Origin: Bacteriovoracaceae bacterium
GTDB lineage: Bacteria; Bdellovibrionota; Bacteriovoracia; Bacteriovoracales; Bacteriovoracaceae
Reading direction: 5' to 3'
Assembly (NCBI GenBank): GCA_045805035.1
Contig: JBJMLZ010000248.1
Location: 1,333-65,332, forward strand
DNA: 64,000 nt
Shown here: piece after piece, positions 31,211 to 34,925 of the stretch
Layout: each line of letters starts with the position of its first letter
How positions within the stretch are numbered: the stretch's first letter is position 1
Position numbers and translations under genes: made by a program
Notes under the pieces: model-generated
What the model was told of the DNA's origin: nothing
The model's database searches: none
The model's input: the letters and a program-made list of their open reading frames with translations, nothing else

Positions 31211-31798
31211 CTACTGATTTTCGGACTTGGCCTTGATCCAGGAAGTGACAGACAATTTAAGGGCCACATCAACCGGGATGTCGACGTGTTCGACTTTGGA
31301 TGGTTCGATGAGGACTGTGATCCCACCGAGCATATAGGAAAGCGGGATATACACTGCCACGAGATTTTTTCCGGGAAGTTCGGTGAGGTCTTCACGGGTC
31401 ACAAGTCCCAGGGCCTTCACCCCCATCGGTTCCAGCGGCACTAAAACCACACGATTCAGATTTCCATCCCCACTTTTTCCTGGAATGAGGCCCATGAGAT
31501 CGCGCAGGGGCAGGTACACGGTCTTGATCAGTGGAACTTTTTCCAGAAGGCCGGTGATGAAAACGAAGGCCCGGCCGGTGATGTAGTTACTGACAAGCAC
31601 CCCGACCAGCATGATGAAAATCAAAGACAGAAGAATGCCCAGTCCGGGAATGTAGAGCCAGTCACCGAGGATTCTCCCGAGTGCCGGAGCAAAGATTGAT
31701 TCAACGTTTATGCTGGCCCAATAGAGAAGATAAAACGTGAGAGTAATCGGGAGGACTACGATCAGTCCTTTGAAGAAAATCTGGTTCAGCTTTTTCAT
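31211..31798 (-). CDS. DUF502 family membrane protein
   Basis: FFKGLIVVLPITLT, EKVPLIKTVY, VAVYIP, LKLSVTSW. Confidence 0.88.
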   Translation of the reverse strand: MKKLNQIFFKGLIVVLPITLTFYLLYWASINVESIFAPALGRILGDWLYIPGLGILLSLIFIMLVGVLVSNYITGRAFVFITGLLEKVPLIKTVYLPLRDLMGLIPGKSGDGNLNRVVLVPLEPMGVKALGLVTREDLTELPGKNLVAVYIPLSYMLGGITVLIEPSKVEHVDIPVDVALKLSVTSWIKAKSENQ

Positions 31799-31831: not shown

Positions 31832-31860
31832 AAAAAAAAAGGGCCCGTGAGGGCCCTTTT
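31832..31860. terminator. Intrinsic terminator of the microprotein gene
   Basis: A9-GGGCCC-GTGA-GGGCCC-TTTT; gives a U9 tail on the minus strand just after the TAG at 31869. Confidence 0.85.
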
Positions 31861-31868
31861 CGAAAGAA

Positions 31869-31961
31869 CTACTTCTTCTTAGAAGCTTTCTTTTTAGTAG
31901 CTTTTTTAGCTGCTTTCTTAGTTGCTTTCTTAGTAGCTTTCTTTGCTGCTTTCTTAGCCAT
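31869..31961 (-). CDS. 30-aa Lys/Ala-rich histone H1-like microprotein MAKKAAKKATKKATKKAAKKATKKKASKKK
   Basis: Not in the ORF track; GGAGG SD 5 nt before ATG, promoter upstream, terminator downstream, synonymous codon variation between repeats. Confidence 0.85.
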   Translation of the reverse strand: MAKKAAKKATKKATKKAAKKATKKKASKKK

Positions 31962-32012
31962 AATTTCCTCCCAGGAAATGTGTGGTTAATATAATTGACC
32001 TTTCTTATTTAA

Positions 32013-32041
32013 AGCTTAAACACAATTTTCATCTAACGCAA
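32013..32041 (-). promoter_or_regulatory. Sigma70-type promoter for the microprotein
   Basis: TTGCGT-17 nt-TAAGCT with an AT-rich UP-like tract upstream (32042-32060). Confidence 0.65.
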
Positions 32042-32191
32042 ATAAAAAATACAAATTTTATTCAAACCTGTTTTTTTTTCTGATCAAGGGGGGTCTGGAG
32101 GATTTTTTGTGGGCCTCACATCCCTCATGCACATCTCGTGATCAATGATCAGTTGTTATGCATGAGAGATCGGAAGGTGTTTCAGAAAGAT

Positions 32192-34531
32192 TTAGGGAAA
32201 AATGAAATCAAGATCGTCGTTTTTCACATCAACTGTCACTTTTCCGCCACCCTCAAGCTTACCAAAGAGGATCTCGTGGGCCAGTGGCTTCTTGATTTTA
32301 TCATTAATAAGACGAGCGATCGGACGGGCACCAAGTTTCGAATCGTATCCTTTCTCGGCCAACCATAACTTCGCTTTCTCACTCACCTCGAGCTCAACTT
32401 TCTTCTCAATAAGCTGGTTCTCAAGCTCCATCAGGAACTTGTTCACCACCATCTCGATGTTCTTGTTCTCGAGCTTATTGAAGGTGATCACAGCATCCAG
32501 ACGGTTTCTGAACTCAGGAGTGAAGAATCCTTTGATCGCCTGCTCGCGCTTGGTGGTATTTATTTCCCCTCCCCGCGCACCCGCAAGACCAATGGAACCT
32601 GCTTCCATTTCTTTGGCCCCGGCATTTGAAGTCATGATCAGGATCACGTTCCTGAAGTCTGAACTGCGGCCGTTAGAATCGGTAAGGGCCCCGTGGTCCA
32701 TCACCTGTAAAAGGATGTTGAACACATCTGGATGCGCTTTCTCGATCTCATCAAGCAGAAGAACTGAGTACGGATTTTTATGGATGGCATCGGTCAGTGT
32801 CCCGCCTTGCTCAAACCCAACATAACCCGGAGGGGCCCCGATAAGTTTGGAGACGGTGTGCTTTTCCATGAACTCCGACATGTCGACCCTGACAAAGTTA
32901 ATGCCCATTAAATGTGCAAGCTGTTTGGCCAGTTCGGTTTTACCAACACCGGTCGGACCGGCAAAAAGGAAGCTTGCGATCGGCTTGTCCTGATGGCCGA
33001 GACCAGATCGGGACAGGATCAGAGCATTCGAAACTTTTTCCACGGCCTCATTCTGGCCATAGATCATCATCTTCAGATCGCGTTCAAGGAACCGAAGCTT
33101 TTCTTTCTCATTAATAGAGATCGATTTCTGCGGAATCCGCGCAATCTTGGCAACGATGTGTTCGATATCGTTCATCGTAACGGTAGAGCCTTCACCTCTT
33201 TGCGGGTTCAGGCGGATATAAGCGCCGACTTCATCAATCACGTCGATTGCCTTATCCGGGAGTTTTCTTTCCGCCACGTGCTTGTGAGACAGTTCCACTG
33301 CCGCACGAAGGACGTCTTCCGGATACGAGACGTGGTGGTGCTCTTCAAATTTAGATTTAAGACCTTTTAAGATCGAAACCGAATCCTCAACCGATGGTTC
33401 GAGCACATCTACTTTCTGGAATCGGCGGTTCAGCGCCTGATCTTTCTCAAAGTATTTGCGGTATTCATCAAAAGTGGTCGATCCCATACAACGGATCTGA
33501 CCTTTAGAAAGAGCGGGCTTCAAAAGATTGGAGGCATCCAGGCTTCCACCGGAGGTCGCACCTGCTCCAATAATTGTGTGGATCTCATCAATGAATAGTA
33601 TTGAGCCGTTTTCGGAGTTTTGCTTTTCCAGGGCCTGAAGAACGAGCTTGAGGCGCTCTTCAAAGTCACCGCGGAACTTGGTTCCGGCAAGAAGCGAGGC
33701 CATATCAAGTGCGTAGACCGTGGTCTTCGCAAGTAATGATGGGACACGATTTTCCACGATCGCTTTGGCAAGGCCTTCGGCGATGGCGGTCTTACCAACA
33801 CCGGAGTCTCCGACCAGAATCGGATTGTTTTTCCGGCGACGACAAAGAATCTGGATGATTCGCTGAATTTCTTCTTCGCGACCAATGATCGGATCGATCT
33901 TCCCTTCTTTTGCCATCTGATTCAGATTCGTAGTGAACTCTCCCAATGCTTTTTCGTATTTTTCTTCGCGACGGAAAGTCTCGCCACCGTTTTCAATGTT
34001 TACTTCTTCAGTGCCATTGTTGACCGGACGGTCTGCGGTGTGAGCAATTTTTTCGACGATGTCGATGCGATTGACACCCTGGCGTTCGAGGAAATAAGTC
34101 GCGTGAGATTCTTTCTCACTGAACATCGCCACGAGAAGATTGATGGCCTGGATAGATTTTTTTCCCGAGCTTTGAATGTGGATCGCCGCCCGTTGAATCA
34201 CTCTTTGCAAGGAAAGAGAGATTTCAGGCTGGTAGAGAATCCCATTTTCCCGCGCCACTTCGCGGAGTTGATCATTACCAAACTGTTTACGGTTCAGATC
34301 CTGGATCTCATCCGGTGAAAGAAGAGAGAAATTGGCATCGTCATTCAAAAAGGATTGCAGATCTTTTTTCAGATCGCCCATGTTGGCGCCACAATCGTTC
34401 AGCACTTCCGATACTGTTTCATCTTCCAGCATGGAAAAAAGAACATTTTCGAGAGTCAGAAATTCGTGCCGCTTTTCGTTCGCGCGTTTTATAGCTTTAT
34501 TGAGAATTTGTTCGAGTTTTTGACTGATCAT
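32192..34531 (-). CDS. clpA: ATP-dependent Clp protease ATP-binding subunit ClpA
   Basis: RHEFLTLE N-domain, two AAA+ modules (GDSGVGKT; GPTGVGKT), DEIEKAHPD; follows clpS. Confidence 0.97.
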
Positions 34532-34604: not shown

Positions 34605-34925
34605 TTATTCTTCGGGCTCAGTACTGCATTTTAATGGGTGACCATTTTCACGCGCATACTTGATGACTTTGGCCACCTTCGACTCAGCGACTTCATAGGT
34701 GTAGGTACCGCAGATTCCGAAGCCCCGCGTATGGACTTCGAGCATGATGGCGTGTGCTTCTGGTGAAGTTTTCTGGAAGTATTTTTCGAGAACGTGAATC
34801 ACGAAATCCATAGTGGTGTAGTCATCATTATGCATGACGACTTTATACATGCGTGGACGCTGAAGTTTATCCTTCTTCGCCGTTGCGACACCTGATTCTT
34901 CTTCCCGATCCGTTTCTGCAGACAT
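34605..34925 (-). CDS. clpS: Clp protease adaptor ClpS
   Basis: YKVVMHNDDYTTMDFV, IMLEVH, AESKV, HPLKCSTE. Confidence 0.97.
   Translation of the reverse strand: MSAETDREEESGVATAKKDKLQRPRMYKVVMHNDDYTTMDFVIHVLEKYFQKTSPEAHAIMLEVHTRGFGICGTYTYEVAESKVAKVIKYARENGHPLKCSTEPEE

Follow-up and report, generated by a model that had tools for sequence, protein, structure and literature searches.

What, if anything, is encoded in the gap between clpA and the gene for a DUF502 membrane protein in a member of the Bacteriovoracaceae? The window studied here is a stretch of 64,000 nucleotides from contig JBJMLZ010000248.1 (C248 of the 3.19-Mb, 306-contig assembly GCA_045805035.1), and in this gap it carries, on the minus strand, a 30-codon open reading frame (ORF) that ends in TAG and whose product is MAKKAAKKATKKATKKAAKKATKKKASKKK. 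We refer to this ORF as the micro-ORF. The host is a Peredibacter-like member of the family, a predatory 'Bdellovibrio-and-like organism', and not Bdellovibrio itself, around which a preliminary description of the locus had been framed. Judging from the sequence of the micro-ORF and of its relatives, we are highly confident that it is a genuine protein-coding gene, because its synteny, its substitution pattern, its conserved expression signals and its codon use all agree. As to function, we put at about even the chance that the peptide is a free-standing polycation that binds the nucleoid, by analogy with the tail of histone H1 or with the chlamydial protein Hc2.

The lysine-repeat ORF and its expression signals

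The translation of the micro-ORF is exactly the 30-residue protein of Lys, Ala, Thr and Ser that had been claimed at this locus (16 Lys, 9 Ala, 3 Thr, 1 Ser and 1 Met). For the 29-residue peptide without its Met we calculate a mass of about 3.1 kDa (monoisotopic 3097.04 Da), an isoelectric point (pI) of about 11.2 and a net charge of about +16. Its calculated tryptic fragments are at most 3 residues long, in line with an earlier warning that trypsin would destroy it. There is no signal peptide, and hydrophobic residues are almost absent from the 30-residue sequence. AlphaFold2, run on the single sequence, predicts one continuous helix over residues 2–29 with a predicted local distance difference test score (pLDDT) of 90. 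Because the peptide carries a charge of +16, we read this predicted helix as a propensity that would be realized on a polyanion, and not as a stable fold.

Orthologs can be recognized by their position. About 17 genomes of the same genus have an ORF of 28–84 amino acids directly downstream of clpA, beginning with MAKKA and made only of K, A, T and V with an occasional P or S. At least 14 loci in other Bacteriovoracaceae, with ClpA identity falling as low as 57%, also have a micro-ORF directly downstream of clpA, and the clpA-linked arrangement is present in named metagenome-assembled genomes (MAGs) as well. Both clpA and DUF502 had been suggested as anchors for finding the gene in relatives: the syntenic ORF is indeed found next to clpA, but its adjacency to DUF502 is variable. 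DUF502 lies directly downstream in the window genome only, and elsewhere another gene intervenes, sometimes apparently in convergent orientation.

At the DNA level the ORF consists of imperfect tandem copies of a 12-nt unit (6.6 copies, 76% match) that encodes (A/T)(A/T)KK tetramers, and the peptide is repetitive from residue 2 onward. It might therefore lack any function as a protein: the DNA could simply be repetitive in tandem, could specify a small RNA or could belong to the clpA 3′ untranslated region, and be open by chance; insertions and deletions of whole units preserve the frame automatically, and no gene caller reports the micro-ORF. The substitutions argue otherwise. Among 20 distinct coding sequences (CDS) from the genus, grouped by length, the numbers of variable sites at codon positions 1, 2 and 3 are 6, 2 and 39 (39 of 47 at position 3; P = 3.4e-12), and 34 variable codons are synonymous-only versus 8 that change the residue. 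The window genome (G000) and G024 encode an identical peptide with two synonymous changes between them, in a background of 90% identity in ClpA and 84% in DUF502. The ATG, the Shine-Dalgarno (SD) sequence and the stop are kept in every ortholog, and no Rfam family matches the locus. On the plus strand opposite the micro-ORF no start codon was found, and an antisense hydrophobic ORF there was rejected for lack of one; nor is there an alternative in-frame start, so a longer gene call cannot conceal the micro-ORF. We consider a non-protein reading very unlikely and reject a non-coding repeat on the codon-position pattern: as the preliminary description had proposed, selection appears to act on the protein, with third-position and mostly synonymous changes, rather than the sequence being a product of DNA slippage.

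Codon use in the micro-ORF resembles that of ribosomal-protein genes and is in this sense high-expression-like. The 9 Ala codons of the window's micro-ORF are GCT or GCA without exception, its 3 Thr codons are all ACT, and across the genus 241 of the 248 Ala codons in micro-ORFs are GCT or GCA. The combined fraction of GCT and GCA is 0.40 in the long ORFs of the genome versus 0.71 in its ribosomal-protein cluster.

The micro-ORF is flanked by a complete set of expression signals (Table 1), and promoter, SD and terminator are all conserved among relatives, as would be expected if the locus is the complete expression unit it had been described to be. The SD, a GGAGG as previously noted, is unchanged in all orthologs of the genus and is kept in four other genera. 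The hairpin in which it lies is invariant within the genus and so provides no covariation; in other genera the corresponding sequence, ATTTCTGGGAGGAAAT, pairs too. This hairpin had been pointed out before, and it does fold, but weakly. The putative promoter, TTGCGT-17-TAAGCT, agrees with the E. coli sigma-70 consensus at no more than 6 of 12 positions, and a promoter scan made no call. However, five genera share TTGCGT, the 17-nt spacing and a −10 of the form TAnnnT (T1, A2 and T6 kept); since the −10 varies only at its three least critical positions, the comparison supports a working promoter. The promoter with an UP-like tract that was proposed earlier is thus present and conserved, although its match to the consensus is poor. 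A block of 109 alignment columns running from the A/T-rich tract to the ATG has 85–97% identity to the window, as against 45–57% at clpA third positions with identical residues (in the five well-aligned rows of eleven, the six indel-misaligned rows having been left out) and 31–66% in the spacer upstream of the promoter block. The terminator, with the U9 tract that had been reported, begins 8 nt past the stop of the micro-ORF, just outside the interval first assigned to the gene. Orthologs have terminators with differing stems that still pair (GCCACC/GGTGGC, GCCCTC/GAGGGC and CCACTC/GAGTGG), always followed by T8–9.

Searches of databases and literature found almost nothing that corresponds to this gene. 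An exact look-up in a collection of about 15 billion predicted proteins found 0 of 21 peptides, comprising the window peptide, ten orthologs from the genus or phylum and ten counterparts of Bdellovibrio or of other lineages. When a 53-residue ortholog served as query in a word-seeded homology search, two weak matches came up and no more (P0002 and P0003), probably because of composition filtering. The 30-residue peptide has no match in Pfam or NCBIfam, where no family fits, and none in a PDB sequence search. An open-literature search for the repeat peptide strings returned no relevant paper, and no Bdellovibrio small-ORF or Ribo-seq paper was found in a literature search. The earlier statement that gene callers had missed the micro-ORF agrees with the absence of all 21 variants from the protein collection. 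A peptide with a charge of +16 and strong-looking signals is thus invisible both to gene callers and to tryptic proteomics. Since similar mini-genes occur in many phyla (see below), annotation may be missing a whole class, and it may be that standard annotation systematically overlooks a class of abundant polycationic peptides.

Table 1. Features in and around the micro-ORF, with positions in the window.
Feature	Position	Strand	Remarks
Micro-ORF CDS	31869..31961	-	Translation; orthologs; codon-position pattern 6/2/39
Shine-Dalgarno GGGAGG (core GGAGG 31967-31971)	31967..31972	-	5 nt before ATG
SD hairpin AUUUCCU-GGG-AGGAAAU	31963..31979	-	Half-buries SD, -4.9 kcal/mol
Putative -10 TAAGCT	32013..32018	-	Conserved position; TATCCT/TATCTT in other genera
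Putative -35 TTGCGT	32036..32041	-	17 nt upstream of -10; invariant in five genera
A/T-rich tract TTTGAATAAAATTTGTATTTTTTAT, resembling an UP element	32042..32066	-	Upstream of -35, in conserved block
Intrinsic terminator GGGCCC-TCAC-GGGCCC + T9	31832..31861	-	A/U-extended stem (core 31832-31856)
Stem-loop CTCATGCA...TGCATGAG past clpA stop	32122..32168	-	No U tract; both arms change in orthologs, stem kept
Sigma-28-like candidate TAAA-N17-CCGATC	32168..32194	-	Overlaps clpA stop; conserved in genus
clpA, 779 aa	32192..34531	-	Pfam AAA_2, ClpB_D2-small, Clp_N; upstream neighbor
clpS	34605-34925	-	Upstream neighbor
DUF502 membrane protein	31211..31798	-	Pfam DUF502; downstream neighbor

Two further elements lie at the end of clpA. 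The stem-loop past its stop is possibly the 3′ end or a stabilizer of the clpA mRNA, or possibly the 5′ end of a longer micro-ORF transcript. The sigma-28-like candidate at the clpA stop deviates in its −10 (CCGATC) from the sigma-28 consensus of the same genome, which is CTAAAGTTT...CCGATAA with a spacing of 16–17. With low confidence, it could be a weak sigma-28-type promoter that would give a micro-ORF transcript with a long leader; alternatively, it may be conserved only as the base of the post-clpA hairpin. Elsewhere in this genome the sigma-28/FliA-type motif, CTAAAGTTT-N(11-12)-CCGATAA, occurs 15–45 nt upstream of ORFs, many of them with signal-peptide-like N-termini (on contigs C107, C116, C151, C157, C183, C220, C284, C304 and others). 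It echoes the FliA-driven attack-phase regulon of Bdellovibrio bacteriovorus, with a modal spacing one base longer here.

Length variation, tail fusions and counterparts elsewhere

Orthologs of the micro-ORF vary greatly in length, from 30 to 84 residues within the genus and from 38 to 52 in two neighboring genera. In two further genera that share the leader they have 128 and 140 residues, and at other clpA-linked loci they reach about 150. The start, frame, leader and terminator stay constant despite this drift. The sequences suggest that total charge is what matters and not exact sequence, which would explain why repeat number drifts (30 to about 150 residues) under a fixed frame and fixed signals. 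This range of lengths is also a natural series in which charge dose could be compared with nucleoid compaction.

In one relative the slot is occupied by a fusion. Downstream of clpA, G144 has a 123-aa Lys tail–SWIB/MDM2 protein (L189:1233-1604, minus strand; PF02201, E = 5e-31) behind a promoter and leader like those of the pure-repeat genes (TATATTTTTTATTTGCGTTAAA...ATTTCTGGGAGGAAATTT-ATG), and G178, a congener of G144, has a 140-residue pure repeat protein in the orthologous slot. The SWIB domain (PF02201) is not present in the window's micro-ORF, but in the same genome the Lys tail occurs on two SWIB proteins (C26:8099-8555 and C164:13223-13703; PF02201, E ~1e-28 to 1e-30), on an AhpC/TSA peroxiredoxin (C236:1-556) and on two coiled-coil proteins. 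From its recurrence we take the Lys/Ala/Thr tail to be a module that is reused on several proteins. The tail is found in this genome on two more products, a 195-residue protein with a Lys-rich N-terminal half and an extremely acidic C-terminal half (contig C117), and a second ORF, MAKKKATKKK..., which is truncated by the end of its contig (C93:11078-11206).

We also looked beyond the family with a degenerate DNA pattern scan, and all cross-phylum results given here refer to the matches listed by that scan. Among them are SWIB proteins of Acidobacteriota, Bacteroidota and Bdellovibrionota that carry MAKKA... tails. A review that cites Melonek 2012 describes a plastid SWIB protein, SWIB-4, with an H1-like motif next to the domain; this protein binds DNA, can condense nucleoids and is able to complement an E. 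coli hns mutant (PMC4154389). The SWIB fusion at the orthologous slot is a concrete and testable link to nucleoid biology.

Of 44 Bdellovibrio genomes, 41 have a counterpart of 36–55 residues. It lies at another conserved locus, with small membrane-protein genes and a cysK/metB-like pair as neighbors, between an Mla-like operon and cysK. Its leader (L153–L180, for example L153:1330-1720) has a conserved CAACAACAAC tract and CCTAGGAGG, and the gene has its own terminator. Single-contig Bdellovibrio genomes (about 3.8 Mb) have it at about 3.6–3.8 Mb, or, if it is on the reverse strand, at about 0.14 Mb. A UCCU upstream of its SD pairs with the SD (CCUAGGAGG), and past the gene come a small hairpin and then a CCCCAGAG...CTCTGGGG-T7 terminator. 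Given this UCCU pairing, both predator lineages have an SD that is occluded by an anti-SD-like sequence upstream of it.

Free-standing ORFs of the form MAKKA[A/T]KK..., 17–61 residues long and mostly with an SD-like sequence, were found by the pattern scan in Acidobacteriota, Flavobacteriales and other Bacteroidota, Planctomycetota, Candidatus Eisenbacteria, Kiritimatiellia and other taxa. Because these mini-genes occur in non-predatory phyla, the class is not tied to predation. Bacteriovoracaceae themselves are rich in Lys-repeat proteins, with matches in 66 of 121 genomes, many of them in long ORFs. The window's gene has the features by which we provisionally define a class of oligolysine microproteins (unpublished): its own SD and terminator, at least 50% Lys, a MAKK start, conservation, variable repeat number and absence from annotation. 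Two groups of matches stand apart. One is a 17-residue ORF, MAKKAAKKAAKKGGKKR, that is identical in several distinct genomes (L082, L096, L126, L141, L143 and L146), mostly MAGs of Acidobacteriota (Solibacteraceae and Vicinamibacterales), and lies behind a strong SD, GGGGGG. The other is in Verrucomicrobiaceae/Prosthecobacter (L059:775-3726 on the minus strand, L098:3279-6323 on the plus strand and about 15 other loci among those listed), where MAKKAAKK... is in frame with a pyruvate phosphate dikinase (PPDK) of about 980 residues, confirmed by Pfam for L059. There is no intervening stop, and MAKKAAKK... is preceded by a linker of about 60 residues and an SD-like GAGGA, so it is either a Lys-rich C-terminal tail of PPDK or an internal start that makes a separate microprotein.

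What the peptide may do

Under the reading that we prefer, the micro-ORF would be transcribed separately and would give, after loss of Met, a peptide of about 3.1 kDa that does not fold by itself. Its target would be the phosphate backbone of nucleic acids, to which it would bind non-specifically and preferentially on the chromosome; once bound it would probably turn helical, neutralize charge and help to condense or organize the nucleoid. It would then be the tail-only form of a module that is otherwise attached to SWIB-domain and other proteins. We estimated the dose that this would take. A 3.2-Mb chromosome has about 6.4 million phosphates, 10% of which would be neutralized by about 40,000 copies of a +16 peptide. 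Abundant nucleoid proteins reach copy numbers of this size, and the strong-looking signals and ribosomal-protein-like codon use of the gene make such a level plausible. A role at nucleic acids or the nucleoid had been put forward on the strength of a histone-H1-like composition. That composition, like an H1 tail or Hc2, is as described, and the role gains circumstantial support because the tail is fused to SWIB at the orthologous slot and on two SWIB proteins of the same genome.

Several observations weigh against this reading. Since the tail also occurs on a peroxiredoxin and on coiled-coil proteins, fusion to SWIB is no unique pointer to chromatin. With a composition of such low complexity, homology to H1, Hc2 or AlgP cannot be established, and the proposed role gained no profile membership among Hc1, Hc2 or BpH1: the 30-residue peptide does not match Hc2/HctB (PF07382, cut-off 40 bits) or the BpH1-type proteins of Bordetella and Burkholderia (NF038053, cut-off 80 bits), and the 84-residue ortholog scores 6.9 bits (E = 8.3) and 12.9 bits against them, respectively. 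Polycations bind RNA, ribosomes, polyphosphate (polyP) and acidic lipids as readily as DNA. The codon bias could come partly from repeat homogenization. The same genome encodes PPK1 and PPK2, so polyP binding is possible. Hc2, the closest analog, binds RNA over DNA and represses translation (PMC2848022). Finally, the link to the attack phase that the preliminary description had drawn is weakened, both because non-predatory phyla carry equivalents and because the Bdellovibrio counterpart lies away from attack-phase transcripts, and a role specific to that phase is not supported. Eight highly attack-phase-specific intergenic transcripts are listed for B. bacteriovorus (Karunker 2013, PMC3627812, Table 2), and none of them is near the counterpart's position in the genomes compared, which are not identified as HD100; on position in these genomes, the counterpart was rejected as one of the attack-phase 'sRNAs', which is weak and indirect evidence against extreme attack-phase specificity.

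The strongest alternative is a polycation associated with RNA or ribosomes, which would coat rRNA or mRNA and act as an RNA chaperone or translation damper. Besides the behavior of Hc2, it would account for codon use like that of ribosomal-protein genes, and the presence of the class in many non-predatory phyla suits a housekeeping role. On the other hand, a five-fold variation in length among close relatives is hard to fit with a fixed ribosomal site, the clpA-linked family has no linkage to ribosomal or translation genes, and SWIB is the only domain fused at the orthologous slot. There is also no match to ribosomal protein families (Pfam, NCBIfam) or to solved structures (PDB), whether to bL36, bS22 or similar small ribosomal proteins, and the length of the peptide is not fixed as theirs is. 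We regard this alternative as unlikely, if the one most worth keeping in mind. A function tied to ClpS and ClpA, with the peptide as substrate, competitor or modulator of ClpAP and its turnover set by the adjacent protease genes, would explain why the order clpS-clpA-micro-ORF is kept across genera of Bacteriovoracaceae even at 57% ClpA identity. However, the micro-ORF has its own conserved promoter and terminator, the counterpart in 41/44 Bdellovibrio genomes is at a different conserved locus, and in other phyla there is no link to clpA. Removal of Met is expected to expose an N-terminal Ala, which is not a ClpS N-degron under the N-end rule, and we find the ClpA connection quite improbable. 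Binding to polyP granules, modeled on AlgP of Pseudomonas, or on PhaF on polyhydroxyalkanoate (PHA) granules, is improbable too, if a shade less so. AlgP, whose repeats are of Lys, Ala and Pro, is associated with granules of polyP (PMC9239181), and both polyphosphate kinases are at hand, but the micro-ORF has no linkage to ppk or granule genes and no KPAA-type proline repeats, and the fusion partner at its locus is SWIB and not a phasin.

The predatory habit of the host family suggests another role, as a polycationic weapon exported against prey cells, since Lys-rich helical peptides can be membrane-active. A peptide with no signal peptide and almost no hydrophobic residues, from a class that is present in non-predatory phyla and with no adjacent export genes found in the window, is very improbable in this role. 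Least credible of all is a cis-regulatory leader peptide, that is a lysine-sensing attenuator for DUF502. In the window genome alone it looks reasonable, with a strong terminator 8 nt past the end of the Lys-rich ORF and with DUF502 downstream on the same strand, but the comparative data reject it. DUF502 is missing from many orthologous loci or lies some 1.4 kb off, and the sequence past the terminator there resembles, by eye, the end of a convergent gene, so the fixed same-strand downstream gene that an attenuation leader peptide requires was not found. Nor was the required antiterminator pairing: no G+C-rich segment capable of pairing with a terminator arm occurs in the CDS, and where the terminator stems differ the CDS shows no corresponding differences. 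Lengths of up to 150 residues, the 140-residue version among them, and the SWIB fusion are incompatible with a leader peptide.

If the nucleoid-binding reading is right, it may extend beyond this locus. We suggest, tentatively and knowing that it is rather doubtful, that the clpA-downstream gene, the Bdellovibrio counterpart and the 17–60-residue mini-genes of other phyla form one overlooked class of bulk polycation, a 'bacterial protamine'. Such peptides would be made at the levels of nucleoid-associated proteins, their repeat number would be a fast-evolving charge dial, and they would occur free or fused to SWIB or other domains as a nucleoid tether. In predators the class would be among the missing factors that pack a chromosome of 3–4 Mb into a very small cell. 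A review on the biology of the Bdellovibrio chromosome states that there are further compaction factors still to be identified, so that the list of proteins that compact the chromosome in the attack phase is incomplete (PMC11318664). The micro-ORF would be an obvious candidate for one of them.

Comparison with known systems

In its working principle the peptide is like the H1 tail, the protamines, Hc2, BpH1 and the Lys tails of HupB, AlgP and PhaF, and by testable criteria it is a member of none of these groups. With H1 C-terminal tails and protamines it shares a helix-prone chain and, at about 40–55% Lys with Ala, Thr and Ser, a similar composition. H1 tails are unstructured alone, become helical on a polyanion and work by charge neutralization. 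The micro-ORF peptide differs in being bacterial and free-standing and in having no winged-helix globular domain (there is no Pfam match to linker histone H1, PF00538, and 30 residues are too short for the domain), whereas protamines are Arg-rich. Coxiella burnetii has a basic DNA-binding protein of about 30 residues, ScvA, in its small-cell variant, with stage-specific expression. It resembles our peptide in size and in basic character, and it comes from a bacterium that has a life stage with a condensed nucleoid, but it is Arg/Gln-rich and unrelated in sequence.

Hc2 and BpH1 come closest in construction, being built of short tandem units, each with two Lys plus Ala, Val or Thr, whose number varies in frame. 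Hc2 has Lys-rich repeats that vary in number between strains, condenses DNA and binds RNA (PMC2848022). Its action on DNA and RNA is electrostatic (PMC2848022), as we propose by analogy for the micro-ORF peptide. However, the repeats of Hc2 are pentamers within 36-residue elements in a protein of 165–237 residues, whereas the micro-ORF has tetramer (KKxx) units in 30 residues, and it has no equivalent of the non-repeat C-terminal part of Hc2 and BpH1. Hc1/HctA (PF07432) gave no Pfam match even at E = 10, and its N-terminal dimerization domain is not present.

Other likenesses are to tails on larger proteins. Plant plastid SWIB-4 and bacterial SWIB proteins with Lys-rich N-termini are Lys-tail proteins of this sort; those of G144 (at the orthologous slot) and of the window genome carry the same Lys/Ala/Thr tail. 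They differ from the window gene in having the SWIB domain. AlgP and PhaF (KPAA/AAKP) and the mycobacterial HupB/Hlp and HbhA (PAKKA/AKKA) have Lys/Ala repeat modules too, and these tails bind DNA or polyP (PMC9239181, PMC5676037, PMC10665949). They are Pro-rich and sit on folded domains, unlike the micro-ORF peptide, which has neither Pro nor a domain. What is new at this locus is thus the free-standing microprotein form of a kind of sequence, the histone H1-like Lys repeat, that is already known.

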